Of a stretch of DNA of 35,065 bases, positions 3,438-32,702 are shown piece by piece. The notes under the pieces are model-generated. The model did not search any database. It was given only the letters and a program-made list of their open reading frames with translations, and was not told the origin of the DNA. Origin of the DNA: a virus. Lineage: Duplodnaviria; Caudoviricetes. The stretch lies in the IMG/VR virus record IMGVR_UViG_3300005512_000143, positions 1-35,065 of that record; one strand, 5' to 3'. Position numbers and translations under genes: made by a program. Position 1 is the stretch's first letter, and the number at the start of each line of letters is the position of its first letter.

Positions 3438-5279
3438 TTATGTTAAAGTCTGGAGTGTCCAAGTATCGCCTGCATCCGTAGTTTTGAGAACCGTTTCAAA
3501 TGTTCCGACCGCCCATGCCACCGTGGCGGAAACCATTGTAACGGAATATAACATCTTGGTTGTGTCGGAATATGTATCTTGCACCCAGGTTACTCCGCCG
3601 TCTGTTGTGGTTGCCACTTCTCCATTAGCTCCCACGGCGATCCCTTCTGTCTTGTCGTAGAATGATACACCATACATATCCTCTGTAACATTGGAGGTCT
3701 GACTTGTAATTGTAGCCCCTCCATCTGCGGAGGTAATTATGGTTCCATCCTCACCGACACACCACAGGTATAGAGACACATCGAAAATCATAGCACATGA
3801 TCGAAGATGTTTTGTGACTCCAGAAGTCCGAGAAGTCCAGGTTGATCCTGCGTTGGCTGTGGTAAGAACAACTCCGTCTTCGCCACAACATACAGCACCA
3901 GTGCCATCTTTCAGAGCAATTCCGAAGAGTTTTGTTGTCACTCCGGAGGTTTGCGCCGCCCAAGTTGCACCGTCGGAAGTGTAAAGTATAACTCCACCAT
4001 CGCCGACTGCCCATCCTTCTGTAGTTGATGAGAACTTAACTCCGTTAAGTTGGGTTGTTATTCCAGAAGTCATAGAAGTCCAATTAACTCCGCCATTAAC
4101 TGTTTTAAGTATAACCCCTGAGTCTCCAACTGCATAACCCACGGTAGCACTGACAAAATGCACATCGTTGATTCTGGTTGATACTCCAGAAGTTTGTGAT
4201 GTAATTGCCGTCCCACCATTGGCGGAGGTATAAGCCTTCCCACCTGTACCGACAATCCAGAATGCTGAAGTTGAGAATGCGGAGGCACCCCAAATATGAA
4301 AATTATCGAAATATACTTCCTTCGCATTTGTTACCGCACCCTGGAGTGCATAACCTGCCGTACTGTCATATTTTGCATTGCCGGAAACTGCCTGAACAAC
4401 CCGGTCACGGAGACTAACCGGCTGAGAAGACCCAGTATAGAACAACGCAGGAAGTGTTAAGACAACACTATATGTCGTTGCCGTATCTGTGATAGTTGAC
4501 CCCGTCAAGGTGATTGTAACAAGAAAAGTGTCAACAGAAGTTGGAGTCGTACCGCCCCAGAAGTCCTCTATCAAGTCTGCACTGTCGAATGTGTGATCTG
4601 CTGTATATTCGATGTTTCGCATTGACGGTTCGATGAATCCCGGGAATCTGCTTCCAAGTTGGATTCCGTCATCGCCTGAAAGGTTGTTATTAATCGTCAA
4701 TGAGAAGTTTTCAATATTTGCGGATCCCGGTATTGTAATAACGCATTGAGCAAAGTTGAAATATGAAGTGCGGTCAACTGTGTAGGATGTTTCCAGGGTG
4801 TTTTCCTTGTCCTGTTGCCCCACGATCCCCGCTGTCATCTTCGCAAATTCGCCCTTGTTGCAGGAGATTTCCAATGTGTTAACTTTACATCCGAGGAAAC
4901 AATGCTCAAATAAATCCTTACCTACTCTTGTGGTGAAGGAATCCAAGGTATTGAGTGGTCGGAAAGTATGAGTGAATACATCATTTTCACATTCGACTTT
5001 CTCCAACTTATAGTACTGACCGAGTACCCAATTCAAAAACATCGGTAACATATTTGCGTCGAGGTTCCGAGTAATATCGCCTTCGACATAATATGGTCCC
5101 GGAGCTACCACCTGAATATCCCGGCTCGTGATCCCTTCATCCATCAATGCCTGCCCATCTCTGGGACCAAGTCCCACACTCTCCGCATCGAAATATTCGT
5201 GCAGATTGTCATCTGTTACCTCGGTTCCAAATGTCGTTTCCTCTGCCATTGATAGATACCTTCTTCTTGGTCCTGCCAT
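3438..5279 (-). CDS. Major tail tube protein with C-terminal Ycf48/BNR (Asp-box) beta-propeller
   Basis: The N-terminal ~325 aa resembles a siphophage tail tube (EETTFGT; FTHTF; FLGCKVNTLEI; IENFSLTINNNL). The C-terminal ~290 aa has 7 repeats with T/S-x-D/N-G-G-x-x-W-like boxes. Confidence 0.82.
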   Translation of the reverse strand: MAGPRRRYLSMAEETTFGTEVTDDNLHEYFDAESVGLGPRDGQALMDEGITSRDIQVVAPGPYYVEGDITRNLDANMLPMFLNWVLGQYYKLEKVECENDVFTHTFRPLNTLDSFTTRVGKDLFEHCFLGCKVNTLEISCNKGEFAKMTAGIVGQQDKENTLETSYTVDRTSYFNFAQCVITIPGSANIENFSLTINNNLSGDDGIQLGSRFPGFIEPSMRNIEYTADHTFDSADLIEDFWGGTTPTSVDTFLVTITLTGSTITDTATTYSVVLTLPALFYTGSSQPVSLRDRVVQAVSGNAKYDSTAGYALQGAVTNAKEVYFDNFHIWGASAFSTSAFWIVGTGGKAYTSANGGTAITSQTSGVSTRINDVHFVSATVGYAVGDSGVILKTVNGGVNWTSMTSGITTQLNGVKFSSTTEGWAVGDGGVILYTSDGATWAAQTSGVTTKLFGIALKDGTGAVCCGEDGVVLTTANAGSTWTSRTSGVTKHLRSCAMIFDVSLYLWCVGEDGTIITSADGGATITSQTSNVTEDMYGVSFYDKTEGIAVGANGEVATTTDGGVTWVQDTYSDTTKMLYSVTMVSATVAWAVGTFETVLKTTDAGDTWTLQTLT

Positions 5280-9881: not shown

Positions 9882-12026
9882 TTAAATTCTTATTGGTTTC
9901 AAATTTGGATAGACTGCCTGACTTGTGTCAATCGAATGACAACATCGGCAGGCTATAGTTTCAGATCCACTCGCTCCCATTGAAGTATCACCCGGAAACA
10001 TCAACATCCCCCCTGATAATTCAAATGGTTCCTTCATCTCGACGGTCTGACCATCTGCCTCAATGTGTGTTGGTCTTGTCCGGTCATCTCCGACAGCCAA
10101 CCAGGTTTTTTTCACTCCCGTTATACCGAGGTTGTTAGACCACTGCTGAGATGCCTGGAATGAACCTGCATTTGACGCTTGACTTACTTCTGTTGCGGCT
10201 ATAAGCTCTGACCTGTATTCGGAACTTATCTCCGCCAAATCATTTATTCTTTCCGCTATCTCCTTGATGGATTCTCCAGCTTCAATTCCGGCTAATATCT
10301 CTCTTCTTACCGCCTTGATCGTGGTGTCGTTTACCTGTGTAATCAATTCTCCAACGACACCATTAATATATTGTGTAACAGCGGAATCAAACGGGTTGAA
10401 TATGTAGGGATCTTCCACCTTATATTCTATTATTTCAATTGATATTTTCGTTTCTTTTTTAATCTGTTCCATCGTTGACTTCCCAAAGTCTTCCATGACA
10501 GACTCAAACAATGACTCGTGGAAGGCTTCCCAGCGGTTCTTTACGGTGAAGAAATCAACGTTATAAACATTCTGTAGGTCATTCCAGCTATCAGCCCTGT
10601 TAATCGCCCCGCTTATTGCCGTTATATGATCGTAGATTATAGACTTGGCGACTTTACTTAACTTTCTCTCGAATCGCCTTCTCCTGCGCTCGAATGAAGC
10701 AATATACTTTCGTTTCGCCGCCCTGGAAGTAAGATCAATAACCTTAAATTCACCGGGCAATATTATTCTCTTCTCTCCACCTGCTTCTTCTGCGCTTCCA
10801 ATTGGTAAGAGATTCGACGGCATAACAAATATGTCCCCGCCCTTGACCTCATCGAGTCCTATCGCCTGACGGGCTTCATTCTGTGTCATAAGCCCGACCC
10901 TGAAATTATTAACAACCCTCTTGTTCAAAAGATCCCGGTCTTCACCGAGACATTCAACCTCCGATAAATCGTATCCGAGTAATATGCCTTCTTCAATCTG
11001 TGGAGCAAGGATGGCGTTGAACAGGGTCACGAATTTGTTTATGTGAGGGATAATCGTCTGCTGATAGAATATCTTTTCTGCCGTCTTATAATTATTGTAT
11101 GTCATCTGCTCCATGACGCCGGCTATAAGTGCAGGGACTCCAAAGACAATACATATATCTTCACGGTTCATTTCGGTGAGGTTCACAAAATCGGCGTCTT
11201 GAGCGGTCATCTGTGTTTGTGTCCATTGCAAGCCGCCTTCCATAACTACCGGTCTGTAAGCATTTGAAGCACCTTGCCAATTGTTTTGTAATTCCAGCCT
11301 CATCGCCTGTGCCTGGGCTTCTGTCAATGTGTCATTAGTGGAAAGTATCCCGGAGGGATGGGCAAAATTCTGAAATCTATATTTATTCCAAATCTCAATC
11401 TCGTTTTCTGTGTCAATGGTATTAGCCGCCACTTGTATCGGTGACAGCCCGTAATAATCATTTGAAGGATGGGCAAATTTCCAATGGATCAGGTCTTCAG
11501 GCGGAATGTTGGGGTATCTTAGACCTGAGATAGTGTATTGATAACCCTTAACCTTCTGGTCTTTTTCTGTGCCTGGAATGACCTCAATTCTTTCCGGTCT
11601 AAGCATATAAAGCTCATAAGGTGATCTTCCCTTGCGTTCTGAAATGTCCATATAAGAATTCCCGGAGATATTCAAGAACATTGCCCAATGTTCCAGGAGA
11701 TCCATCCATGATTGGTAGGGATTGGGTTGATTTATCAAATCATTGAGTGGTCGATCTGTGACCTCTTCCTTCTTGCCCTTCGCATCCAGCTTATAAGCAA
11801 AATAACGAATAGAACTAACTCTATTCGAAATCTCTCTGATACAGCGATATACAAGTTCACTCTGCTCATAGCCTTCTTCTGCAAATGTTTCAAAATTAAC
11901 ATCAGTAGGTTGTGGCATGCCTTTTTCATAAGGGGGAATCAAAGTGAAGTATGATTTTTTTTGGAATACTTGGCTGAGAACCTTCTGGAAATGTCCTCTT
12001 ACATTTTGTAGGAATCCCATTGACAT
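9882..12026 (-). CDS. HK97-family portal protein fused to a MuF/SPP1 gp7-like head morphogenesis domain
   Basis: Portal motifs (PNPYQS, SGNSY, LIHWKF, YYGLSPI, ICIVFGVP, MTQNEAR) up to about aa 410; MuF motifs 'KKTWLAVGDDRTRPTH...DGQ...LMFPGD...CRC' at the C-terminus. Confidence 0.9.
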   Translation of the reverse strand: MSMGFLQNVRGHFQKVLSQVFQKKSYFTLIPPYEKGMPQPTDVNFETFAEEGYEQSELVYRCIREISNRVSSIRYFAYKLDAKGKKEEVTDRPLNDLINQPNPYQSWMDLLEHWAMFLNISGNSYMDISERKGRSPYELYMLRPERIEVIPGTEKDQKVKGYQYTISGLRYPNIPPEDLIHWKFAHPSNDYYGLSPIQVAANTIDTENEIEIWNKYRFQNFAHPSGILSTNDTLTEAQAQAMRLELQNNWQGASNAYRPVVMEGGLQWTQTQMTAQDADFVNLTEMNREDICIVFGVPALIAGVMEQMTYNNYKTAEKIFYQQTIIPHINKFVTLFNAILAPQIEEGILLGYDLSEVECLGEDRDLLNKRVVNNFRVGLMTQNEARQAIGLDEVKGGDIFVMPSNLLPIGSAEEAGGEKRIILPGEFKVIDLTSRAAKRKYIASFERRRRRFERKLSKVAKSIIYDHITAISGAINRADSWNDLQNVYNVDFFTVKNRWEAFHESLFESVMEDFGKSTMEQIKKETKISIEIIEYKVEDPYIFNPFDSAVTQYINGVVGELITQVNDTTIKAVRREILAGIEAGESIKEIAERINDLAEISSEYRSELIAATEVSQASNAGSFQASQQWSNNLGITGVKKTWLAVGDDRTRPTHIEADGQTVEMKEPFELSGGMLMFPGDTSMGASGSETIACRCCHSIDTSQAVYPNLKPIRI

Positions 12027-14177: not shown

Positions 14178-14993
14178 TTATTTCAAAATCATTCCATATT
14201 CATTCGTGCCAGTGGGAACCTCAATATCTTTTCTTTTAATCAGCCTGTTTTTTTTATAAAATCTCTTATAATCTATCATGTGATGCCATCGTCCATAACG
14301 TTTAACCAGCTTAACACAATCAGGATGTTCTTGATGTAATTCTTTGACAAATTCTAAACGATTATTCGTTGCCTCATAATAAGGTGTATTTCCGCCCTTC
14401 ATAGTCATTGTTGTTATTTTTTTTACTTGAAAAGCATTAAAAAGTATTGTACACAAACCATGTTTTAAAACACTAATACATAATTCAGAATCTTCATTAA
14501 AAAATGTTTTAAAGCGGAATGGAATATTAGTTTGAATTAACATGTTAGAAAAAATTCTATGATTTACTTGAAATGGTTGATATTTGTTTCTCCTCATAAT
14601 AAACATTTCATACTGCATTCCTGCAATAGCCACATTCTCATAACGATCAACAAAATCTTCTAATGAATGAATAAAGTTGCCAGTTTTCATTCTATAAAAA
14701 CTATTCTTGTGTAATCTCTGAAACCATTCTATATTGTCATCAAAAGTCCAATACCTTTTATAGCCCTTTCCCTCACAATAATCCCATAACCAATTTCTTG
14801 TAACCGTGACACCTTCATCCCTGTGGGGTAATATTAGAATATCCTTTTCATCGACTGTTAGTTTGTATTTATCAACTTCTTGCGGTTCTACGAGAATTTT
14901 AAACGGTAAATTAACTTCCCGAAAAGCATTAACTGTTAGAGTTTTTTCCCAACGACCTTTTGTTGGAATGAAAATTGGATATTTATTCTCCAT
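14178..14993 (-). CDS. TET-associated/GREB1-like glycosyltransferase (putative DNA base modification)
   Basis: 'YPIFIPTKGR', 'TRNWLWD', 'WTFDDNI', 'NEDSELCISVLKHGLCTILF', 'TMTMKGGNT'; likely ATG at 14993 after GGAGG. Confidence 0.72.
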   Translation of the reverse strand: MENKYPIFIPTKGRWEKTLTVNAFREVNLPFKILVEPQEVDKYKLTVDEKDILILPHRDEGVTVTRNWLWDYCEGKGYKRYWTFDDNIEWFQRLHKNSFYRMKTGNFIHSLEDFVDRYENVAIAGMQYEMFIMRRNKYQPFQVNHRIFSNMLIQTNIPFRFKTFFNEDSELCISVLKHGLCTILFNAFQVKKITTMTMKGGNTPYYEATNNRLEFVKELHQEHPDCVKLVKRYGRWHHMIDYKRFYKKNRLIKRKDIEVPTGTNEYGMILK

Positions 14994-15645
14994 TATTTTC
15001 CTCCTCTCCACCGAGTATACATTTGCCATATGACACATTTTCTTTAGAAGGGAAAAATATATATTTCGTTTTATCAGTTATTTTAACATTTAATAGTTCT
15101 ACAAAAGTTTTTACATTTTCATTATTATCAAAATGAACAACTATACTCCTAAATGGTTTATCATCTTCTTGAACAAATTCAGGCATCCCTTCCCATTCTT
15201 CTTCTTCATTAATTGGAAAAATCTCTCCATAGTTAATGGTTGGGAATTCAAAATCTGCCAAGTCTTCAAACTCAAAGTCAATCTCCTCCATGAAGTTAAA
15301 TAGTCCTTCCTCGGTCATCTTCCCATACTGTGAATTAATCGCCAGGAGCTTCTTCTTGGCGTCCTTCTCGTCATCTGCTTCCACATACACCACCGGGAAC
15401 CGCTCCGGTATTTCCTCGCCATCTGCTTCCATCTGTCTGAGCACGTCCTGCCTCTGGTGTCCGTCGAGAATGTAATTAACTTCTCCATCTCGCCACACAA
15501 AGAACGGGACAATAAACCCATGCTCCCGGATCTGCTTCTTGAGCTTTGCCGCATTCTCTTTTGTCAGTGTTTTGAGTTTGCCCTGTAGGTTGGTCATCTC
15601 ATCCAGGGTCAATCTTTCTTTTGTGTCACATTTAATCTCTATCAT
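14983..15645 (-). CDS. ParB/Srx-like N-terminal domain protein
   Basis: 'LKKQIREHGFIVPFFVW...ILDGHQR'; acidic C-terminal domain 'EWEGMPEF'; overlaps the glycosyltransferase start. Confidence 0.8.
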   Translation of the reverse strand: MIEIKCDTKERLTLDEMTNLQGKLKTLTKENAAKLKKQIREHGFIVPFFVWRDGEVNYILDGHQRQDVLRQMEADGEEIPERFPVVYVEADDEKDAKKKLLAINSQYGKMTEEGLFNFMEEIDFEFEDLADFEFPTINYGEIFPINEEEEWEGMPEFVQEDDKPFRSIVVHFDNNENVKTFVELLNVKITDKTKYIFFPSKENVSYGKCILGGEEENNGE

Positions 15646-17593: not shown

Positions 17594-18060
17594 TTAGTGG
17601 TATCTAAATGGGTTACATTCCATTGTTTGCAAAAATAAATTCCCGGTTCCGCCCTTCTCTAAAGATCCTCTTGCATTTTCACATTTTTAATTATTCTTGG
17701 ATCAAAAGGTAACGGTAATTCTCCTCTATGTAGGAGTTCGGCAACCAGCGATTGAGCTTTTTTTCCTTTTTCTCCATGGTCATCCGTTTCATAGAATTTA
17801 TGTTTATTCCAAAATTTATCTTTGATGTTATATCCTTTACAGGAATGAATTTTATCGGGTGGAACAAGGTATCCCTTTGCGGTCTTAATGCCTTTTGTAA
17901 ATACTGAGACCTCTTTAAATTTGTCTTTAGAGATAGCTTCTATTCCTTTTACTGTGGAATAAACATAAATAACACGGACTAAAGGACAAACATGAACTCT
18001 CAAATCACTTTGTTCTTCTTCTATTCCATATTTTATTAGTTCTTTGTTACCCAGGCTCAT
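17594..18060 (-). pseudogene. Hypothetical protein, apparently frameshifted near its C-terminus
   Basis: The ORF from ATG 18060 stops at 17659. A protein-like tail (EKGGTGNLFLQTMECNPFRYH*) continues in another frame to 17594, abutting the next RBS. Confidence 0.45.
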
Positions 18061-19231
18061 TGCCCCATGCCTCCCATCCTTCAATTTCCTTCCTTGCAAA
18101 GAGTTCAATTCGTTTTCCTGTGGTGTAAAGTTGATCTATTAATTCCCTGAATTCCTCCGGTTTTTCTGAATGTTTCCGGCTTTTCTGAATTGAAATTACG
18201 CTATCAAGTTTCTTTTCATAATCGGGGACACAACTTCCTTTTGTGCAAATCAAGAGGAATTCATGCCGGACAGAATTATAATGTCCATAGTTATGCCCGA
18301 TTTTATCCCACACAAAAGAACTCTTATATTTAAATCCCCAAGCCTTTATCACCGGAAAACATTCCTCTAACAGCGGTGAAGTCACCCACATGAAAAGCAC
18401 TGAATTTTCTTCTGTAATTTTTTTAATTTTTTCTCCCATTTTGCATAATTCAGCTATTGACATAGAAGGATAATGTCTTTCAGCATGTCCGTAATTATCA
18501 TTCCCGATAATGCCTGAATTCCCATATTCCCAGGGTGGATCTGCATAAATTACCCGATATTTACCCTCAATTGGCGGCGGTTCTTTTTTGTTTTCTTTGT
18601 TGATCTGTCGGACTGCCTGTTTAACCGTTTTCGCTTCTCCGTCCTCTATCATTGTAATAACTTTTATTTGAACTTCCGGCGGTTCATTAACTATAGTGAC
18701 CGCCCCGGACACAGGAATATCTCCTTTTTCCACCGCTTTAGATAATTCAGGAGTGCCTTCTTTGAGGACTTTCTCCGCTGTTCGAATTGATCTCCCTGAA
18801 ACATTGAGTGCTTCTCCGGCTTTGTCGGAGGACTTGCCTTTATTCTGTTGCGGAAAATTTTCCCTAACAGAATTCTCTTTTTTAATCGGTTTCCTTATTT
18901 GCCTTTCCTTCGCCTGCTTCTCGTAGATATGCTTTACCCGGGCTCCTGCCATTGCTCTCTGTGACTCCTGTAAATGGCGTCGGAGAAGGTTCAGACTAAC
19001 AACAAGGTTCAGGGCTTCTTCCGGCGTCCCCACAAAGTTAAGCAAATTAACATCATAGAGTTTATTGAGCTTTTTACAAGCCCGATAACGGTTCCTACCG
19101 TCAAGGATCTTGTCTTCATAGAGATACACGGTGTGTTGTTGTAGTCCATTATGCTTTATGTCCTCGACAAGTTTATCAAATTCCGCTCCCTCTATGAGAG
19201 GGAAAATATTGGCGAATTCATGAAATTCCAT
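18047..19231 (-). CDS. ParB-like domain fused to MT-A70 family adenine methyltransferase
   Basis: N-terminal 'ILDGRNRYRAC...SLNLLRRHL'; C-terminal 'YRVIYADPPWEY', 'LFMWVT', 'WGFKYK', 'HSEKPE', 'RIELFAR', 'WGNE'. Confidence 0.92.
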   Translation of the reverse strand: MEFHEFANIFPLIEGAEFDKLVEDIKHNGLQQHTVYLYEDKILDGRNRYRACKKLNKLYDVNLLNFVGTPEEALNLVVSLNLLRRHLQESQRAMAGARVKHIYEKQAKERQIRKPIKKENSVRENFPQQNKGKSSDKAGEALNVSGRSIRTAEKVLKEGTPELSKAVEKGDIPVSGAVTIVNEPPEVQIKVITMIEDGEAKTVKQAVRQINKENKKEPPPIEGKYRVIYADPPWEYGNSGIIGNDNYGHAERHYPSMSIAELCKMGEKIKKITEENSVLFMWVTSPLLEECFPVIKAWGFKYKSSFVWDKIGHNYGHYNSVRHEFLLICTKGSCVPDYEKKLDSVISIQKSRKHSEKPEEFRELIDQLYTTGKRIELFARKEIEGWEAWGNEPG

Positions 19232-22047: not shown

Positions 22048-23244
22048 TTAAAATCCATATTTAGTTATATTGCATTGCCTCGCATGATTTTCTCTTGACA
22101 TAATTCCATCGCTTTTCGGATACCAACCGGGATACCGATAAGGTCTTTTGTGTTCTTTGAACCAATTAATAATTCTTTTTACCATTTTACCGTCGTACTT
22201 TGCTGTTACATGACTTAATGGCGTTATTGGATTTGGGATTAACGGCGTGAATTTAATTCGCAGGTGGACATTAACCGAAACTTCTATCTCAAACACAGCG
22301 TCCATTACCATTTCAAATTCATCAAAATCGCTTAATTCCTCCCACGGGTAACCAAATATCATAAATGCTTTGAAGTTGCGATAGCCTTGTTTAATCATGA
22401 TTCTGAAATATTCGACAATAGCTTTATTACTGATTTTCTTGTTGACAAAATATCTCGTCGCTTGTGTTAATCCGTCAATTCCTACTCGTATTAACATGTT
22501 CTTAGGGAGATTTATCTTTGATTTTAGCAAGGTATCAAGTCGCATTGAGCCAAAACTCGTAACAAATCCCCGCTGATTTATCCTCTCCAGGCACGTAAAA
22601 TATCCAGGATGTGAGGATTCATCAGGAGCGAATAATGTTACTTTGTTGGTGATCTTCTTATCCATCTTATCAATCAGACTCAATATGTAATCAGTCTTTT
22701 GCAGGCGGAAAGGCCATCCCCATCCAAGCTCACAATAATTACATTTATGGGGACAACCTCTTGCCATTTCAATATAATAATTTGTCGCATGTCCTTCTTC
22801 ATGGCTCTCATTGAGATAGAGAGGTAATTCAGGAAGTTTCCTCAAATGGACGCTTTCCGGTAATATTCCTTTGAAATCCTTACAAATAATCGTCCCATGT
22901 AAATCCTGTAATTCCTTTGCATCCAAGTTTTTTTTAAGTCTTGTGAGGGCTTCCACAATCCATTCTTCTCCCTCTCCCCGGAAAACCACATCGGCATATT
23001 GAATGAATGGGATCGGGTTTGCTACAGTCGGATGACCTCCAAGGATTCTGATTTTCCCTTTTCTTGGCAATTCGGCAAGCCGGTATAAATCGGTGAAATG
23101 GTGGACGCTGATTAACTCCACATCATAATCACAATTCTCTGGTTCATAATCAATTTCAAATCCGGCTTGCCGTGCATAATACATGATGTAATAACAACCT
23201 ATGCTTCCTTTGGTTTTAGCCGGTTCTGTCATACAAATCTTCAT
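22048..23244 (-). CDS. Radical SAM enzyme with B12-binding-like N-terminal domain
   Basis: CxxxCxxC in 'IEMARGCPHKCNYC'; N-terminal 'ILGGHPT...ADVVFRGEGEE'; 'FMIFGYPWE'; 'FTPLIPNPITPL'. ATG at 23244 overlaps the csf3 stop (ATGA). Confidence 0.9.
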   Translation of the reverse strand: MKICMTEPAKTKGSIGCYYIMYYARQAGFEIDYEPENCDYDVELISVHHFTDLYRLAELPRKGKIRILGGHPTVANPIPFIQYADVVFRGEGEEWIVEALTRLKKNLDAKELQDLHGTIICKDFKGILPESVHLRKLPELPLYLNESHEEGHATNYYIEMARGCPHKCNYCELGWGWPFRLQKTDYILSLIDKMDKKITNKVTLFAPDESSHPGYFTCLERINQRGFVTSFGSMRLDTLLKSKINLPKNMLIRVGIDGLTQATRYFVNKKISNKAIVEYFRIMIKQGYRNFKAFMIFGYPWEELSDFDEFEMVMDAVFEIEVSVNVHLRIKFTPLIPNPITPLSHVTAKYDGKMVKRIINWFKEHKRPYRYPGWYPKSDGIMSRENHARQCNITKYGF

Positions 23245-23891
23245 GCTTCTTCCATCCTCCAGCCTATCGGGAAACAAGGGACTTTCCCTTCATTTGCCCA
23301 GTAAGGCGGTCTTGGTCTTATCATTCTTATTCCTTCCTCATGAGGGAAATATCTATTAATTTTGTCATTATTCAATATTGTGTAGTCATACTTCGATTCT
23401 TCATAAGAAATCATGGTAACATTACCATGTCCATGTGATCTCTTCTGCCCAATTCGCTTTACCTTATTTAACAAACGGGAAACTTCATCATAATCTCCGT
23501 CGAAGTATGCTTCCATTTTTGAGCATAAATACAATTGTAAAGAGTTATTATAAGATCGGTAATGCCCTGTGGTTATTGTGATATTGCCGTTTGTCAATCC
23601 ATCAGCCCGTTTCTGCGGGAAATTTTTCCGATAATATCTCTTCTCATGGACAATATCGCCAACCGGGAGGATAGCAGAGGCTTTCCAGACCTCTTCGCCG
23701 GACAGAATCACTTTTTCCAATGGCAGATCAACCTCAATGATAGGATCGTCCCTGTTTATCGGTTGTTTGAAAATTTCATGGTATTTTTCCATAAAAACAT
23801 AATATGCAAGTAATCCGTCCAAGTGCAAAGGCTCCCGGCGGTTGAATACTACACCCTTGCCGTCCAGGTGGAATGTAACTTTATACACCAT
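23241..23891 (-). CDS. csf3: Type IV CRISPR Cas5-family RAMP (Csf3-like)
   Basis: 'PLHLDGLLAY', 'LPL', 'WKAS', 'GHYRSY', Gly-rich loop 'IGQKRSHGHGNV', C-terminal 'RPPYW'. Confidence 0.85.
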   Translation of the reverse strand: MVYKVTFHLDGKGVVFNRREPLHLDGLLAYYVFMEKYHEIFKQPINRDDPIIEVDLPLEKVILSGEEVWKASAILPVGDIVHEKRYYRKNFPQKRADGLTNGNITITTGHYRSYNNSLQLYLCSKMEAYFDGDYDEVSRLLNKVKRIGQKRSHGHGNVTMISYEESKYDYTILNNDKINRYFPHEEGIRMIRPRPPYWANEGKVPCFPIGWRMEEA

Positions 23892-24564
23892 CTTTCTTTT
23901 TCGCCTCCTTCTTTTCTCTCACGGGCAATAACCACACCGCTAATTGATATTCGGGAGAAGCATTTATATTCTTCATTCTATTAACATAATCATACCATTT
24001 CACAATGTCAATCTTTTGGAGTTGAAATCTGTTGATGTCAAGTGAGAGCAAGTCACCGCGGCTCACTCCCATTTTGTAGAATTCATTTATCGTGTCATAT
24101 AATAATAGTGTGTTTGGCACACTACATTTTTTTGTTGAAAAAGAAACAATCGAATTATGACTTGATAAATTTGCTTGTGTTAATAACCCACCGGGACGCC
24201 TCATATCTATAGCACAATACATCCCCCACGGGAGAGGAATCTCATGGCAATTCAAAAGTAATAAATAAGCTTCCGCACGTTTTATAGTGCGGAAGCCGTT
24301 CTCATTATCAATAATCCATGAATTCCATCGCAGATGTCCATCTTTGAGGATCTCTGCGATCTCCCGATCAACCTGCTGTTCTTTCGGACAGGCTAAGAGG
24401 TTATATGGGATCGTATTTTTCCAGACCTCTTTTATACCCAAATAATCAGAGGTTAATTTGCCCGTTATAGCACAAGTTTTTGACTCATAATTCAAGTGAA
24501 GTTCTTCCGGATGAAACTTATTTTGCTTCAGGAGTTCTATCGCTAACAATCTCAAATCCTCCAA
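23881..24564 (-). CDS. csf1: Type IV CRISPR large subunit (Csf1/Cas8-like)
   Basis: Lies between csf2 and csf3 and overlaps both; degenerate N-terminal Zn-finger region 'CAITG...LLACP'; 'LRWNSW'; 'PLPWGMY'. Start codon uncertain. Confidence 0.62.
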   Translation of the reverse strand: MEDLRLLAIELLKQNKFHPEELHLNYESKTCAITGKLTSDYLGIKEVWKNTIPYNLLACPKEQQVDREIAEILKDGHLRWNSWIIDNENGFRTIKRAEAYLLLLNCHEIPLPWGMYCAIDMRRPGGLLTQANLSSHNSIVSFSTKKCSVPNTLLLYDTINEFYKMGVSRGDLLSLDINRFQLQKIDIVKWYDYVNRMKNINASPEYQLAVWLLPVREKKEAKKKDGV

Positions 24565-25753
24565 TCTCTTTTATAAAGTCAAGGATTTTCTCTTTGTTGT
24601 CTTCAATGAATTTCTCATACAAATCAGAGGATAAGTCTTTATCCGTTGTGATCTCCGTGAAACCCCATCCTCTATTGGACGCGGCACCTACTCTCCCTGA
24701 TTCCTGCATTAATTTTATTCCCAGATGAAGACAATGCTTCTCAATATCAGTGATATTGTCGTTGTAGTCAATACCACCTATAATGACATTTCCAGCCTTC
24801 ATAAGTTCAAAATTAGCAATCATACTTGTATTCTTGTCGTGTTGACCGACCAGATCATCACGCCTCGTGAGATATTCCCATGTTAGCATATCCTTGTAGC
24901 TTGGATAATTTCCATCTCTCATTTCTTGACATTTCGGGAGATAATCCAGAGAGGCAAATTTGCCGGGATAAAGTGAATTTGAAAATCCAAACCCGAAGAC
25001 TGATAACATTGGGAAGAGGTCTCTGAATCCTGCAATCTTATTGAGATTATATCCATGTATTGTTTCTCCGGTTTTCTTTGCCGATTTCTTGACTTCCTTA
25101 TCTCCGCCTAAATTGCCACCTGAATATAGGAGATAGAAGAACCATGTGGAATATGGAGGATTTATCCTATCAGCTTTCAGTCCTAATCTCTCCGTCAAAT
25201 CTCGTGCCAAAAGGTCTCTCATCCTGCCCCTAAAAGCATTCCCTGCATAATATGGCATTTCTATAATTCCGCCGTTTTCTGCCATGATTTTTGTCCGTCG
25301 GAAGAGTGAAGCATTGCCGGCTTTGATGTCGCTCCCGTGGTGTAATGGTGTCAAGAGTTTTATCTCAATGGGAATATCTGGAATGTAACGGCTTGTAACC
25401 CTATCGCCTTCTTTGTATTCCAGGAGATTGATTTTTCTTATGGTATTCTCATAATTCTCTTGCCCATCCTTCTTGTAACTCAAGTGAGCAAGAGAAACAG
25501 CGATTTTCAGATTATCACGAATCCAAGGTACTATTTCAGATCCGCTTTCTTCAATAATAATTTTGCTAATTAATTCTCCGTCAAGAGCAGGAGATTTCAT
25601 TAATCCTGAAAGATTGTTGATAAATGACAAAACATTATTATCCGAACAAGCTTGTCTTACCCGTGTTTCAAATAAATCATATTTTGTGCTTGATTTTGAT
25701 TCCATTTCACTTTTTAAGAATATCAATCCCATCGCTTTTAATGTGTTTTTCAT
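24518..25753 (-). CDS. csf2: Type IV CRISPR Cas7 (Csf2-like) with N-terminal Cas11-like helical domain
   Basis: RAMP motifs 'IKLLTPLHHG', 'SLFRR', 'PYYAGNAFRGRMRD', 'LYSGGNL', 'FPMLSVFG', 'VGAASNRGWG', preceded by about 110 aa of helical extension. Confidence 0.87.
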   Translation of the reverse strand: MKNTLKAMGLIFLKSEMESKSSTKYDLFETRVRQACSDNNVLSFINNLSGLMKSPALDGELISKIIIEESGSEIVPWIRDNLKIAVSLAHLSYKKDGQENYENTIRKINLLEYKEGDRVTSRYIPDIPIEIKLLTPLHHGSDIKAGNASLFRRTKIMAENGGIIEMPYYAGNAFRGRMRDLLARDLTERLGLKADRINPPYSTWFFYLLYSGGNLGGDKEVKKSAKKTGETIHGYNLNKIAGFRDLFPMLSVFGFGFSNSLYPGKFASLDYLPKCQEMRDGNYPSYKDMLTWEYLTRRDDLVGQHDKNTSMIANFELMKAGNVIIGGIDYNDNITDIEKHCLHLGIKLMQESGRVGAASNRGWGFTEITTDKDLSSDLYEKFIEDNKEKILDFIKEIGGFEIVSDRTPEAK

Positions 25754-25789: not shown

Positions 25790-26197
25790 TCATATCACAA
25801 CATCTTCCTTATTATTGATAATCTTCGGCGGAATCTTTTCCCGGATAGCCTTCCTCAATGCAGTTATTGACGCCTTGCCATAAAAATGCCTAACATCGGC
25901 AAGTGTCACTGTTGTGGGAGAATGTCCTGCTCCCATAGCCCCGTAGAGTTGCCAAAACTCAATGTAAGTACTCGCCAGGGTCAACAGTTTTGTGTCGCCT
26001 CTCTTCATTCGCAGGCTCCCCGCATATCGCTTTACCGGGTCAACCATTCCCTGTGGAGTGTAATCGTAGCCTCCGCCTATCTCCGCCCTGTCGCCCTTCA
26101 TCCCGGGCTTGTCGGTGGGTGATTGCTTGTCGTAGCAGGTTTTTTGTCCGCCTACAGCGGGGAATGGTGGGTAATGTGTTGGTTTATTTATTATCAT
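25790..26197 (-). CDS. Hypothetical protein
   Basis: GGAGG RBS; overlaps the upstream ORF; immediately upstream of csf2. Confidence 0.55.
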   Translation of the reverse strand: MIINKPTHYPPFPAVGGQKTCYDKQSPTDKPGMKGDRAEIGGGYDYTPQGMVDPVKRYAGSLRMKRGDTKLLTLASTYIEFWQLYGAMGAGHSPTTVTLADVRHFYGKASITALRKAIREKIPPKIINNKEDVVI

Positions 26198-26847: not shown

Positions 26848-27135
26848 TTAGCCATAGCCATAGCCAGCGCCAGCGCCATAGCCAGCGCCAGAGCCATAGC
26901 CATCGCCAGAGCCATAGCCAGAGCCAGCGCCAGCGCCAGAGCCAGAGCCAGCGCCAGAGCCATCGCCATAGCCATCGCCAGAGCCAGCGCCATAGCTATA
27001 GCCAGAGCCATAGCCATCGCCAGAGCCAGCGCCAGAGCCAGCGCCAGAGCCATAGCCAGAGCCAGCGCCAGAGCCATCGCCATAGCCATCGCCAGCGCCA
27101 GCGCCGATGTTACCCTCGATAAAGATCACTTGCAT
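26848..27135 (-). CDS. Gly-rich low-complexity protein (G-X dipeptide repeats), copy 1
   Basis: Strong GAGGAGG RBS before the ATG; (GGC-KMT)n hexamers encoding GA/GS/GY/GD. Confidence 0.65.
   Translation of the reverse strand: MQVIFIEGNIGAGAGDGYGDGSGAGSGYGSGAGSGAGSGDGYGSGYSYGAGSGDGYGDGSGAGSGSGAGAGSGYGSGDGYGSGAGYGAGAGYGYG
26851..27105. repeat. Degenerate 6-bp tandem array (GCCAGA/GCCATA/GCCATC/GCCAGC)
   Basis: Directly visible in the sequence. Confidence 0.95.
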
Positions 27136-27208: not shown

Positions 27209-27490
27209 TCATGACTCCTCCTTCAACTCCAGATCCTCTTCACGGGCAAGGAATATATCCCGGTCTTTCAGGTTCTTCCTGCACTCATAGAGGCGGTGTC
27301 CTTTGGACTTTGTAAAGATATTGCCTACTTCTTCATTTACCCAATCACTCTTACCCTCATATTTCGTACAGATACCGATAATTAACATCTCTGTGGGCTT
27401 GAACCAGAATTTTTCCCTAATGATCCTTCTATCGTTCTCATAATAGAAGTCCATTGCTTTCTTCACAAGTACTTTATCGCCGATTTTCAC
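27209..27490 (-). CDS. Hypothetical protein
   Basis: Probable GTG start overlapping the methylase stop (GTGA) after GGAGG. Confidence 0.6.
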   Translation of the reverse strand: MKIGDKVLVKKAMDFYYENDRRIIREKFWFKPTEMLIIGICTKYEGKSDWVNEEVGNIFTKSKGHRLYECRKNLKDRDIFLAREEDLELKEES

Positions 27491-28128
27491 TTCACAACCT
27501 CCTCCGGTGCAGGTATCAGCCCGCACTCAATATAATTCTTAATCGGCACTTCGCCAACCTCGTATCTTGTGTCCGTGTTAAACTCCTCGCCACTCTGTAA
27601 CCGTCGCTGTACTTCCAGATCAATGACGAAGCCCAGATCTGAAAGTGAGTATATCTCCGGGATCTCCTCTTGGGAGAAGACGACGATGGCGGATCCTTTT
27701 GGTGAGCTTCCCACGGACTTGCCGTCAATCTCGAATTTGATTCGGCCATACAAAGGAATTAAATATTTGGCATATTTCCATATGTAATTCCTCCATGCTT
27801 TCATTTCGGTTGATGAAGGAATTAATAATAATGCTAAATCCGCACCCTTTCTACGGTGAACATGATAATATGCCATATGAATCCAATCCGATAACGACGA
27901 GGTTGGATGACATATTCTGCCGTAAGGAGGATTACAAAAAACTCGCCCATACCAATTCTCTCCCAATCCACTTACATCAGGGGAAAATAATCCATCTGGA
28001 CATTTGCAATTTTCCTCAGTACAAGCTACATCCATTTCAAAATGAAACACCTCATCCAGCCTGTCAAATAACTTCTGCGGCGTTTCCCATTCCTGCGACT
28101 TTGCAGGGGGCATGTATGATTTACTCAT
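27487..28128 (-). CDS. Phage DNA N6-adenine methyltransferase (Dam family)
   Basis: 'EWETPQKLFDRL...FEMDVAC...VFCNPPYG...GRIKF'; true start is probably ATG 28128 after AGGAGG. Confidence 0.9.
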   Translation of the reverse strand: MSKSYMPPAKSQEWETPQKLFDRLDEVFHFEMDVACTEENCKCPDGLFSPDVSGLGENWYGRVFCNPPYGRICHPTSSLSDWIHMAYYHVHRRKGADLALLLIPSSTEMKAWRNYIWKYAKYLIPLYGRIKFEIDGKSVGSSPKGSAIVVFSQEEIPEIYSLSDLGFVIDLEVQRRLQSGEEFNTDTRYEVGEVPIKNYIECGLIPAPEEVVK

Positions 28129-28152
28129 TTTATTCCTCCTATATTTGGTATT

Positions 28153-28259
28153 TGCCCGGCGCCGGGATTCGAACCCGGAAGGCAATCCATATTAAATTGC
28201 CACTTCTTACCTCTTATATGAGCGCATGTGTTGACGACTCCCAGAACGCCACGCCGGGC
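28153..28259 (-). ncRNA. tRNA-like element (perfect T-arm, 8-bp acceptor, long variable arm, non-canonical anticodon arm)
   Basis: Acceptor GCCCGGCG/CGCCGGGC; T-arm CCGGG-TTCGAAT-CCCGG; variable stem GGCAAT/ATTGCC; D-like arm GGCG-TTCTGGGAGT-CGTC. Confidence 0.65.
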
Positions 28260-28284
28260 AAACTGTTATTTCCTGTTTATTTTC

Positions 28285-28566
28285 TTAGCCATCGCCATAG
28301 CCATAACCATTGCCAGCGCCAAATCCATAGCCATAGCCAGAGCCATAGCCAGAGCCAGCGCCATCGCCATAGCCATAGCCAGAGCCAGAGCCAGCGCCAG
28401 AGCCAGAGCCGGCGCCAGAGCTAGAGCCATAGCCAGAGCCAGCGCCATCGCCATCGCCAGAACCATAACCAGAGCCAGAGCCATCGCCATAGCCATCGCC
28501 AGAACCAGCGCCAGAGCCAGAGCCATAACCAGAGCCATAACCAGAGCCATTATCTATTTTTCCCAT
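28285..28566 (-). CDS. Gly-rich low-complexity protein, copy 2
   Basis: ATG overlaps the end of the DUF6948-like gene; GGC/GGT/GGA variation is synonymous in this frame. Confidence 0.6.
   Translation of the reverse strand: MGKIDNGSGYGSGYGSGSGAGSGDGYGDGSGSGYGSGDGDGAGSGYGSSSGAGSGSGAGSGSGYGYGDGAGSGYGSGYGYGFGAGNGYGYGDG
28288..28550. repeat. Degenerate 6-bp tandem array, second copy
   Basis: Directly visible; shares its flank with the first array. Confidence 0.95.
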
Positions 28567-29429: not shown

Positions 29430-32400
29430 TTATCTCAAAATAGTTTCCATCTCGCGCCGCTCCATATCAAAGCACTGTGGCAATTGTGCTAATAGTCCGT
29501 CATTATGCGATGTAATTATGCCCTGGGTAAGCGTCCCACTAAGGGTACTTATGATTTTCAGAACCTTCGTTGCCGAGTCTGCCCGCAGATTAACGAAGGG
29601 CTCGTCAAGCACAATAAACCCGTAGTTTCCGCCGTGGGATCGTGCCTTGAACAGTGTCAGAGCGATTCTGATTATTAGCCGTATCAATTGCTTCTCTCCG
29701 CCGGAGTATCTGCCGATGGGTCGGATTCCACAGGCGGATTCTATCATAATTTCGAAGTCTTCCTTTGTCTTCCCGCCCTTGGTTTGTGTCTGGGTGACGA
29801 ATCGAATTAGAAATGGGTTGTCTATTATCACAAGGATCTCGTTGACAATGTCCTGTATCCTGGGAATGGAATTGCTTATGAGGTATTGCGGGATTCCTCT
29901 CCTATCGAATGCCTTGTGCAGTGCCGCGTAAATGATGAGGTTGTGTGTGTGGGCTTCAATGTTCTTGTCCATATCTGCGAGTAGTTTTTTGTTATTCTCC
30001 TGCTGTGTTATTGCCTGCTTTGCCATGGCTATATCATACTGGATCACCCGGAGTTTTTCATCGATCCTTCTCTGTTTTTCTTCAGCTTCGAAAATGGTAT
30101 CCCGGAGGGCTGTCTTTCTTTTCTCCGTCATGAGAATCTCATTGTCAATCTTCGATGAGTCTTCTGTGTTCATCTTCTTGGCTTCATCTTTGAGCCGTGT
30201 AAGAATCTCCCGGTATTCGTCGATCTTGCTCTGGTAGAGCTCCGCCTTCTTAGCCTCTTCTTTGATGGTCTGGAAGGCTTTCAGCCCTGTCCGATATTCG
30301 CTTTCCTTATTGAGAAGTTCTTCATTTACCTTATTTTCTTTGAGCATTTTCTTCAATTTGTGAAGACCCATCCTGTCTTCTTTTGATACATATTTTTTGT
30401 TGTCGAGTCTGTCCTGGAAGTTTATTAACTCCTCTTCACTGTCCGCGAGGGCTTCCTTTGCCTGAAATGCGTCCTGAAGAAAACAACAGTTTGAAATGGG
30501 GTTATCGGCACATCCTGCGTTTGAAATCATTGTACTCCGTTTTTCCAAATGGTCAGTTTGCATTTGGAGCTTTTCAATGGAACCTTCAAGAAGTTTTTTC
30601 TTCCCATTAACAGCCATCCGTAGGGATTGTAGCTCCGCCTCCGCTACTCGCAGTCTGCCCATTTTTTGTTTCTCGCCTTTAATTTTCGTAATCTTTGCCC
30701 GCAGACGATCTTCCTCTTCCGGGTCATATCGTAGAGAATCTGCCTTTGCCTTCTGCCCTGTGGCTTCAAGGATCTTCGCTTCGTAGATGTTGCATTGCTT
30801 GACTTTCTCATTATATTGCTTAATGCCTCCTTCTATCGCTGACTTCTTCTCCTGGAGCCGTGCAAGCTCGACACTTGCCTTTTCTTTCATTTTCTGATTT
30901 TTGGTGATTCCTTTCTTGATTTTTTCCAGGGTGTCCAGTGTTTCCTTCTCCTTGACTTCCGCAGACTGTAATTCGTTGGCATAATTTCTATCGGTCTCCA
31001 GGCTTGCAGTAATACGGTCTTTGTTATCATTGTTCACATCAATTTTTGTTTTTAATTCATTTTTCTTGTCCTTGAATACCTCCGCAAATAAGCCGTATTT
31101 CTCAATGTTCAGAAGGTTATGAATGAACTCCATCCGGTCTTTGCGCTTGCCCCCGGTAATATCTCCCACAAGTTCCTGCGACACAAAGATACTCGCTTGC
31201 AATTGCTTAGGGTCTCCGACAAGGGCTTGAATCGCCTCCTGGAAGTCAACTTCCCTGCCGGATGTTATTGAATGATATTCATTGCCGTCGAAGGTGAACA
31301 AGAATGCTTCCTGCGATTGATTCTTTCCTCCCTTGATTTTGCGCTGGGCTTTGTATTTTTTGCCACCGCTCCAGAAGTCAACTTCGATCAATGCGTCACC
31401 ATCGGAGTCCTGTTTGACCTGGTCATATATGGATCCCTTGTATGTGAGAAAATTGGAATAGAATGCGGCAAATATCGCCTCTATCAAGAATGTTTTTCCA
31501 ACTCCATTAGCACCGGAAATTCCAAAGATTCCAGGTTGAAGTTCAAAATCCAGGGTCTTGTGTGGACCAATGTTTTCCAGGTGGATCCTGTCGATCTTCT
31601 CCAAGCTCCCGCCTGATTTCTCCTCCTCGAATGCCGCCTCTTCCTTTGCCGCTTCAATAGCCTTCTCAGCTTCCGGCAATGTTTTTTCCGGTAACAGATT
31701 TTTAATGGCATTAAATTGCTGAAATTGCTCAAATAATGACTCCCCCGAAATCTCCTCCCTGTCCTCTGTTTGCGGTGTTTTGTCGAGTTCTTTCACAAAA
31801 ATGACATTGGGAGGTAACTTTATGTCGGGTTTCTCCGTGTCTTTGATACGATAATGGTCTTCCGTTGTAATTTTGCCGTTGTCCTTATTTTGCTGATATT
31901 CGGAATTAGTGAGCGTGAAGTATCTCTTGCCGGGTATATTAATGTACTCTTCCTTGACAATTTTCTGCTTTTCAGTGTCAATCTCAAGATACTTCCAGCC
32001 TGTTCTGTTACCTTCGTCGCCAAAATCCCTCTGCATTATTGAGCCGATGAATGGTTCCGTCCCTCTGTGGTTATCTCCGAGAGCGATGTAATCAGCACCG
32101 ATAGACTGCAATTCGTCCATCGTGAATGCGAATTTGTCATCGCCGAACAAGTGTCCGCCACGGGCTTCAGACCCGACGAGAATGCAATGACCGAGAAGAA
32201 TCTTGAATTCGTTGTCATAACTCTTGGATAGGATTCTCATTTCGTCCAGGATTTTGTCTTTGAATATCCGGTCTGAATTTGGCTTTGCCATCTCCTTTGC
32301 CGTCAACCTCTCGCTCTTGAACATCCAAGGCATGGCGAGTAGAGCGATTCCAGGAGTTAATTTTAAACTCATTGGTTTTTCTACGAGGTAATTCACCTTC

Positions 32401-32702
32401 AAAGTTCTCAGTGCCGATTTGTCACCTCCCCTCTTGTCATGTTGCCCAGCGATGGTGATCGTTGGTATCCCAGCGTTGGCAAGATCCACAAGCATATCGT
32501 TTGCCGTGCCTACTATTTCACCGACGGATTTACTTCGGTCAGCGATATTAATATAGTGGAAGAAATCTCCAGCGCACAGGTGATAATTGACGCCCATTTG
32601 CCGCATCTCGTTGAAGGAATATTTCAGGGCTGTTACCGTTTCATTCAGCCACTTGCCGCAAAGGTGAATATCTGCGGTTATTCCGAGTTTTATTATGCTC
32701 AT
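29430..32702 (-). CDS. Fused SbcD (Mre11-like) nuclease and SbcC (Rad50-like) ATPase
   Basis: Metallophosphoesterase motifs 'ADIHL', 'AGDFF', 'AGQHD', 'LLGH', 'ALGDNH'; Walker A 'GANGVGKT'; long coiled coil; 'YSGGEK'; 'VLDEPF'; 'ITSH'. Confidence 0.92.
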   Translation of the reverse strand: MSIIKLGITADIHLCGKWLNETVTALKYSFNEMRQMGVNYHLCAGDFFHYINIADRSKSVGEIVGTANDMLVDLANAGIPTITIAGQHDKRGGDKSALRTLKVNYLVEKPMSLKLTPGIALLAMPWMFKSERLTAKEMAKPNSDRIFKDKILDEMRILSKSYDNEFKILLGHCILVGSEARGGHLFGDDKFAFTMDELQSIGADYIALGDNHRGTEPFIGSIMQRDFGDEGNRTGWKYLEIDTEKQKIVKEEYINIPGKRYFTLTNSEYQQNKDNGKITTEDHYRIKDTEKPDIKLPPNVIFVKELDKTPQTEDREEISGESLFEQFQQFNAIKNLLPEKTLPEAEKAIEAAKEEAAFEEEKSGGSLEKIDRIHLENIGPHKTLDFELQPGIFGISGANGVGKTFLIEAIFAAFYSNFLTYKGSIYDQVKQDSDGDALIEVDFWSGGKKYKAQRKIKGGKNQSQEAFLFTFDGNEYHSITSGREVDFQEAIQALVGDPKQLQASIFVSQELVGDITGGKRKDRMEFIHNLLNIEKYGLFAEVFKDKKNELKTKIDVNNDNKDRITASLETDRNYANELQSAEVKEKETLDTLEKIKKGITKNQKMKEKASVELARLQEKKSAIEGGIKQYNEKVKQCNIYEAKILEATGQKAKADSLRYDPEEEDRLRAKITKIKGEKQKMGRLRVAEAELQSLRMAVNGKKKLLEGSIEKLQMQTDHLEKRSTMISNAGCADNPISNCCFLQDAFQAKEALADSEEELINFQDRLDNKKYVSKEDRMGLHKLKKMLKENKVNEELLNKESEYRTGLKAFQTIKEEAKKAELYQSKIDEYREILTRLKDEAKKMNTEDSSKIDNEILMTEKRKTALRDTIFEAEEKQRRIDEKLRVIQYDIAMAKQAITQQENNKKLLADMDKNIEAHTHNLIIYAALHKAFDRRGIPQYLISNSIPRIQDIVNEILVIIDNPFLIRFVTQTQTKGGKTKEDFEIMIESACGIRPIGRYSGGEKQLIRLIIRIALTLFKARSHGGNYGFIVLDEPFVNLRADSATKVLKIISTLSGTLTQGIITSHNDGLLAQLPQCFDMERREMETILR

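Follow-up and report, generated by a model that had tools for sequence, protein, structure and literature searches.

A radical SAM enzyme in the CysH slot of phage-borne type IV-B-like CRISPR modules

Can a type IV-B CRISPR effector be paired with an enzyme other than CysH? The question is raised by four overlapping minus-strand open reading frames (ORFs) at 22048-25753 of a 35,065-nt stretch (hereafter the window), an incomplete tailed-phage record (IMG/VR record IMGVR_UViG_3300005512_000143). The initial annotation had read these ORFs as csf2-, csf1- and csf3-like genes followed by a gene for a radical S-adenosylmethionine (SAM) enzyme standing in for CysH. All four were found where it had placed them, among early and replication genes. 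We hold it almost certain that the module is real and that the enzyme is its dedicated alternative to CysH: the fold of Csf2, the linkage to cas genes and the near-exclusion of CysH all agree with a type IV-B-like module carrying a radical SAM accessory.

The csf core and its radical SAM partner

The product of the first gene matched Csf2 in PADLOC (E 1.9e-39). Its structural model (pLDDT 85, with an all-helical N-terminus) found type IV Csf2 chains as best Foldseek matches, with PDB 7JHY at 7.6e-9, so that the predicted Csf2 has the Cas7/RAMP fold on which the initial annotation had made its reading depend. Its first 100 residues matched two type IV Cas11 models (E 0.0015 and 0.015), and a profile of stand-alone Cas11 proteins from related loci, of which three genes were confirmed as Cas11, recovered it at 5.9e-8. 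Conversely, the profile of the fused family matched IV-C Cas11c (5.7e-4, positions 9-98), Cas7c and the Csf2 of 7JHY; the entry of the solved Cas11c chain is identified in the accessible text of PMC13676074. Csf1 was detected by PADLOC at E 3.2e-4 and by a profile built from relatives at 2e-28, aligned with 36 of them; its likelier start is a TTG at 24549, preceded by the ribosome-binding motif GGAGG. Csf3 matched PADLOC at E 1.6e-38 and TIGR03116 at 1.2e-25, under the cut-off of the latter model. The three csf identities were thus borne out, but the csf2 gene also carries a fused Cas11 that had been missed. The first gene is a Cas11-Csf2 fusion and the full IV-B core (Cas11, Csf2, Csf1, Csf3) is present.

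The fusion recurs: eleven full-length homologues of 399-479 residues were found, next to twelve stand-alone Csf2 proteins of about 270-300 residues. Without dereplication, 45 loci were classed as fused, all lacking a further Cas11 match, and the 61 loci in which Cas11 is a gene of its own are all unfused. Given that the 7JHY complex holds five Cas11 on six Csf2, as described in the available text of PMC7937560, joining the two at 1:1 is plausible.

The start codon of the radical SAM gene overlaps the csf3 stop codon as ATGA (23241-23244), as had been annotated, and the two genes are likely to be translationally coupled, judging from this arrangement. The G+C content of the module is 0.39 against 0.42 for the window. 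An assembly artefact was rejected, given a near-identical copy in another locus (L320, 99.99% over 12,036 bases) and an identical gene order in other loci.

We then asked how firmly the enzyme is tied to csf genes. Its sequence matched 201 proteins, the best 120 of which are 44-62% identical to it (its own entry excepted). Among 1.84 billion representatives searched, full-length family members scored about 190-650 bits and generic B12 radical SAM proteins at most 143 bits. Alignment-based scans covered 12 of 64 and 19 of 64 parts of the viral and genome collections and saturated on the generic cysteine motif; a family-specific DNA pattern used instead gave 110 loci, 52 of them dropped as chance matches without a radical SAM match. 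Locus searches that started from a single sequence, be it the fusion or the enzyme, returned no hits. The gene context was examined on 68 close radical SAM hits (window included), forming 52 clusters at 90% identity. Leaving the window aside, a csf gene lies within 3.5 kb on the same strand in 46 of the 51 non-redundant close homologues. A 47th (L331) has cas6e upstream of the radical SAM gene, and the remaining four are short fragments with at most 531 bases of upstream sequence. Beside distant radical SAM genes no csf gene was found (0/147 loci), and chance adjacency was rejected on the resulting contrast, a cas neighbour in 47/51 close against 0/147 distant loci. The recurrent csf-radical SAM linkage for which a neighbourhood survey had been suggested is therefore present, and the gene belongs to a compact, dedicated family tied to csf operons.

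No homologue was found at E 1e-10 in 50,697 GenBank phages or 72,556 plasmids, hence no cultured model there, and in the collections searched radical SAM-csf modules occur only in uncultured material. Within the family, the window's enzyme ends about 10-20 residues short of most homologues (22048-22060), lacking a nearly invariant G-x-E past the last helix, and retains all catalytic motifs. In two loci, L084 (4523-6004) and L248 (7150-8553), csf3 and the family gene are separated by another radical SAM gene, which is of B12-binding type and unrelated.

The complementary question was whether CysH is present elsewhere. Csf2 led to 79 loci (without dereplication), of which 71 carry a CysH-like gene, 2 a radical SAM gene, 6 neither and none both; the radical SAM form is accordingly a minority. 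CysH profiles were built from these loci; their representatives match Pfam PAPS_reduct, and the class includes long IbrA-like forms. Since PF01507 missed one of three CysH controls, an alignment was used for searching whole records. A CysH-like gene was detected in none of 12 radical SAM phage records (7 of them at least 90% complete) and in all 11 CysH-module controls, one of which is a row of the query alignment; two records with neither enzyme were blank. A cysH and an array elsewhere in the genome had been named as an alternative account of the module; in related, largely complete phage records we found no CysH, and 7 of 8 were free of an array. The claim of a radical SAM enzyme instead of CysH thus holds with one exception: L331, the only one of 52 clusters with both. 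Its minus-strand segment 345-6183 encodes cas6e, the radical SAM enzyme, a cysH-like gene, a 330-residue ORF without assignment and recD2, and the contig ends just upstream. RecD2 is a RecD-type helicase, the mark of another type IV variant.

Gene order tells the same story. Writing X for the accessory gene, the orders Cas7-Csf1-X-Csf3 and Cas7-Csf1-Csf3-X each occur both with CysH and with radical SAM as X, the latter in 18 and 4, respectively, of 56 full-length loci (not dereplicated). The enzyme occupies the place in the operon that is taken by CysH in sister loci. On a quick, unrooted Csf2 tree of 88 rows (3 short rows dropped), in which gain and loss look alike, the CysH/radical SAM label switches 10 times, 5 of them forced by starred branches, for a mean of 27 after shuffling, and a single radical SAM clade was rejected (AU p 4e-71). 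The window's Csf2 falls in a starred set of 33 rows together with CysH-bearing viral loci (18 CysH, 14 radical SAM), in a tree made of rows other than published IV-A, IV-B or IV-C references. On this tree, CysH and radical SAM partners have been exchanged repeatedly.

Other accessory genes were met in csf operons. A long PAPS-reductase/DUF3440 gene with a ParB-like gene lies within the operon of L022 (4989-6706), a pair that we take to be IbrA/IbrB-like; similar clusters, alone or beside a short CysH, occur in L002, L003, L004, L029, L042, L065, L068 and L069. Two operons with neither CysH nor radical SAM carry other genes in the accessory slot (L050, 4167-4649; L060, 6807-7502), without PADLOC match; the L050 protein resembles, by eye, a SAM-dependent methyltransferase.

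Predicted chemistry, source of the RNA and possible mechanism

What might such a module do? The initial annotation had offered ribonucleoprotein-directed chemical modification and the capture of host CRISPR RNAs as possible roles. It is quite possible, and we propose it tentatively, that a Csf ribonucleoprotein (RNP) formed on a borrowed small RNA works with a B12 radical methylase that acts on nucleic acid bound by the complex, for counter-defence. Cas11-Csf2, Csf1 and Csf3 would assemble on the small RNA as an RNA-lined filament like that of PDB 7JHY, with Cas11 fixed 1:1 to Cas7. The RNA would be borrowed, since the phage shows no array or Cas6, and would most likely be host CRISPR RNA (crRNA). 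Using a [4Fe-4S] cluster, SAM and cobalamin, the enzyme would methylate an unactivated carbon, either on the bound RNA or on nucleic acid paired with it. The benefit would probably be counter-defence in an anaerobic host, with captured guides disabled or their targets marked.

The chemistry was approached through the fold. The CxxxCxxC motif lies at residues 164-171 (Pfam PF04055, 7.6e-10), its cysteines C164, C168 and C171 are invariant in 120/120 homologues, and the model (pLDDT 96) contains a partial TIM barrel; on motif and modelled barrel the enzyme is assigned to the radical SAM superfamily. The best Foldseek match was MgmA (9ccb; E 7e-18, TM 0.69, 15% identity), also the best profile match (1.4e-13), followed by TsrM, CysS, TokK and OxsB, all cobalamin-dependent, and then by MiaB. 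Over most of its length the enzyme matches the fold of MgmA, TsrM, CysS and TokK, and it retains the GG and GEGE motifs, without a match to Pfam B12-binding. The N-terminal domain contains an invariant S-x-H-H, and His48, conserved in 120/120 homologues, aligns in a profile alignment with Gln69 of the deposited MgmA chain (9ccb). According to the accessible text of the MgmA paper (PMC11796369), no residue is closer to the lower axial site than Gln49. Assuming a 20-residue tag on the 9ccb chain, we infer that His48 occupies the position of this Gln49, and His-on cobalamin is possible for that reason. The predicted activity of the enzyme is that of a cobalamin-dependent C-methyltransferase.

MgmA, also called QCMT, is a protein glutamine C-methyltransferase, and its position as best fold and profile match raises the possibility that the window's enzyme likewise methylates a protein, which could be one of the Csf subunits or a protein of host defence that the complex presents. 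The two enzymes share a compact two-domain architecture, but the phage enzyme is encoded in cas operons, has His-His for the Gln-Ser of MgmA and has extra invariant basic residues, which differ from MgmA at the aligned positions. Moreover, Csf proteins are 22-29% identical between loci, against 50% for the enzyme, which hardly suits a peptide substrate that is conserved. We consider a protein substrate quite unlikely.

The basic residues in question are R66, R253, R264, K292, R329 and K331, and at each of these positions 54-56 of 56 close homologues are basic too; distant radical SAM proteins mostly carry other residues at 66, 253, 264 and 292, and 329/331 are covered by just 7-10 distant rows. 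As the model places four of the six on strands of the barrel, a phosphate-bearing (anionic) substrate is suggested. They would suit a nucleotide as well as a polymer, so that the enzyme might instead make or alter a small nucleotide-like molecule, either a signal or a modified-base precursor, with the Csf complex as an RNA-sensing switch. CasCysH has been proposed, in the available text of PMC8175902 and PMC13676074, to AMPylate or to make messengers. Several operons lie near DNA methylases, TET-associated glycosyltransferases and ParB-like genes, those of the window being 4-8 kb off. However, phage methylases near terminase genes are common, the neighbours vary, and no conserved receptor or pathway gene accompanies the module. 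We therefore regard a small-molecule product as unlikely.

Where the RNA would come from was examined by scanning 139 csf loci, which yielded one clear CRISPR array, in L326. There the order is radical SAM, csf1, cas11, csf2 and csf3, with the array starting 30 bases past csf3 (10081-10701; 9 repeats, each about 37 bases long, with 8 spacers of 34-36 bases). The L326 cassette is flanked by a 534-base duplication of 95% identity. The annotated array-less state thus holds for the window and for most loci, but not for this one. Cas6e was found in three radical SAM loci, L081 (4777-5361), L330 (5694-6368) and L331. Type I-E-like Cas6 genes lie within or beside array-less csf operons of both kinds (L081 and L330; L001, 9640-10152, of CysH type).

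Among the 8 related records scanned in full (one without its last 1.9 kb), the one with array-like repeats is L374 (2460-2706). At a distance of about 7.5 kb from the operon, it has three CRISPR-like repeats of 37 bases that enclose two spacers and are flanked on both sides by a duplicated ~34-mer within a phage ORF. This may be a scar left when a host array recombined at a protospacer, or the product of a chimeric assembly. A possible mini-array, two 23-base repeats 71 bases apart, was noted just upstream of a CysH-type csf operon (L072, about 4810-4903). The L326 array and the Cas6e loci show that the module can keep crRNA machinery; as the usual ligand we favour borrowed crRNA.

The same loci invite the reading that crRNA directs the complex to DNA or RNA in a sequence-specific manner and that the target is then methylated by the enzyme, so that host genes or competing elements are silenced. 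The genuine array that immediately follows a radical SAM-csf operon and the Cas6e of three loci would fit, as would the guided silencing with an accessory enzyme by which IV-A acts (PMC11656645, accessible text). With one clear array in 139 csf loci, none in the window and no spacer target in the collections searched, we judge it distinctly unlikely. Just as improbable, in our estimate, is its bolder form. There, a crRNA from the host or, as in L326, from an array within the module would guide the Csf filament to a target, a radical SAM enzyme with His-ligated B12 would methylate the backbone or a base of that target, and CysH and radical SAM would be interchangeable writer heads of one programmable platform.

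Several observations weigh against the proposed methylation of nucleic acid on a borrowed RNA. On the enzyme side, the B12-binding-like N-terminus of the initial annotation resembles cobalamin-dependent enzymes in fold but has no Pfam B12-binding match, a single homologue reaching E 0.005. All NCBIfam scores are far under cut-off, with the YgiQ family (TIGR03904) at E 0.0046, and the nearest characterised relative, at an identity of only 15%, methylates a protein. On the RNA side, array, Rfam and intergenic folding searches gave no guide RNA candidate in the window. Cas6e was detected in 0/5 complete radical SAM phage records by a weak search (control positive in 1/14 genomes). The spacers and repeat of L326 had no match in GenBank phages, plasmids, IMG/VR (exact repeat 20-mer), a sample of 401 genomes of one phylum or the fetched loci. 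The solved IV-B complex, as described in the available part of PMC7937560, bound heterogeneous RNA with few crRNAs. As to the partnership itself, L331 has both the enzyme and CysH, and the two are therefore not strictly redundant. The divergence of the enzyme follows that of Cas7 weakly (Spearman rho 0.18, p 0.015), with rho 0.07 each and p about 0.2 for Csf3 and Csf1, which fits an exchangeable head and speaks against a tight co-evolving interface.

This weak co-divergence, the co-occurrence in L331 and the variable gene order would also suit a Csf complex that is a passive RNA sponge, with the enzyme as co-expressed cargo without functional contact. Yet among close homologues with adequate flanks we found none away from cas genes, and in several Csf2 lineages almost every locus has one enzyme or the other but not both; mere cargo is, to our mind, very improbable.

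Phage context of the module

The window, in which 38 ORFs were scanned by Pfam, carries all its head, tail, terminase and replication genes on the minus strand. At least 7 kb of the phage lie outside it, because its proteins are also on record on a 42,144-base contig and its tape-measure gene extends past the left end. Within the 35 kb, the annotated absence of cas1/2, cas6, dinG, cysH and an array was confirmed: Pfam detected none of these genes among the 38 ORFs, the best match of our CysH profiles in six frames of this incomplete record was at E 0.075, and no CRISPR-like array was found, the tandem repeats present being coding only. Rfam gave no match in the window, nothing notable as a guide RNA candidate emerged from those intergenic stretches that were folded, and no shared non-coding segment was picked out among 8 related records.

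The three further putative DNA-modifying enzymes of the initial annotation were recovered by Pfam and are given in Table 1 together with other features of the window. A repeat resembling its low-complexity stretches is present in another radical SAM phage record (L368).

Table 1. Module genes and other features of the window
Positions	Strand	Feature	Remarks
24518..25753	-	Cas11-Csf2 (small subunit fused to Cas7 backbone)	411 aa; Cas11 ~1-100, linker, Csf2 RAMP domain ~125-400
23881..24564	-	Csf1 (Cas8-like large subunit), divergent	227 aa from first TTG; PADLOC, own profile
23241..23891	-	Csf3 (Cas5)	216 aa; PADLOC, TIGR03116
22048..23244	-	Radical SAM enzyme	398 aa; cobalamin-binding-like Rossmann N-terminus, CxxxCxxC, partial TIM barrel
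14178-15645		TET-associated glycosyltransferase, ParB-like neighbour	Pfam; adjoins terminase genes
18047-19231		MT-A70 methylase	Pfam
27487-28185		Dam methylase	Pfam
25790-26197		ORF upstream of the operon	135 aa; no family match, no homologue in fetched loci
26848-27135		Low-complexity tandem repeats	Codes Gly/Ser/Ala/Tyr-rich peptide
~28266-28550		Low-complexity tandem repeats	
29430-32702		Nuclease-like N-terminus fused to Rad50/SbcC	1090 aa
3438-5279		Tail tube fused to YCF48-like repeat domain	
9882-12026		Portal fused to MuF domain	

Classification and significance

The module is a variant of type IV-B: no CysH, the accessory typical of that subtype, was found in the window, for which reason we file it as a variant and not as a plain member, and so far as the evidence goes it otherwise operates as IV-B does. 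With the IV-B system of Mycobacterium sp. JS623 (PDB 7JHY) it shares the four core proteins, a location on a mobile element, the lack of Cas1/2 and of a nuclease and, in most loci, of an array. It differs by the radical SAM enzyme in the CysH slot, by the fusion of Cas11 to Csf2 and by the operon order Cas11-Csf2, Csf1, Csf3, enzyme. The virus-borne IV-B module of Fuxivirus, which has a mini-array, carries CysH instead (PMC10848311, available text).

A Csf2/Csf3 core with a subtype-specific accessory enzyme is common to IV-A (CasDinG), the RecD-associated IV-D and IV-C (with a Cas10-like HD nuclease), and IV-C and IV-D share Cas11 with the window. Their accessories are helicases or nucleases, whereas that of the window is a predicted modifying enzyme; the window has no DinG or RecD, although L331 has RecD2. 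IV-A was rejected since the window lacks DinG, Cas6/Csf5 and an array and has Cas11, and IV-C since a Csf1 of about 225 residues serves as large subunit, in place of a Cas10-like protein with an HD domain. On the enzyme side, RlmX, presumably the same as YgiQ, is not an orthologue, the window's enzyme matching that family marginally at the E value given above. RlmX nevertheless offers a precedent for B12-radical RNA methylation, modifying the RNA backbone (23S rRNA C5') during anaerobic growth according to the accessible text of PMC13602947.

We found no description of a radical SAM partner for type IV in the full-text literature searched, where subscription papers and some supplements are thinly covered. 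The word "radical" is absent from the main text, as far as accessible, of PMC8175902, PMC7038947, PMC10848311, PMC11656645, PMC13676074 and PMC12669027; one supplement file of PMC7038947 gave no match and the readable supplements of PMC12669027 no relevant one. In PMC9723712, PMC4158269, bioRxiv 2021.08.16.456562 and bioRxiv 2024.08.14.607894, radical SAM and type IV terms co-occur without relation to each other in the text available. The radical SAM-type IV-B module is apparently undescribed in print, and the function of IV-B is still called unclear in papers of 2025-2026 (PMC12669027 supplement and PMC13676074, available parts).

The near-invariant CysH partner had been held to be the key to IV-B function. 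Finding a chemically unrelated enzyme in the CysH slot in many lineages implies that the partner is an exchangeable modifying head. The radical SAM enzyme offers easier read-outs than CysH, namely 5'-deoxyadenosine, S-adenosylhomocysteine (SAH) and a mass gain of +14 Da, and L326 supplies defined guide RNAs, the reagent missing from the only IV-B structure. The function of IV-B thereby becomes testable, above all through L326, and if the complex is guided, it would be a natural programmable methylase.

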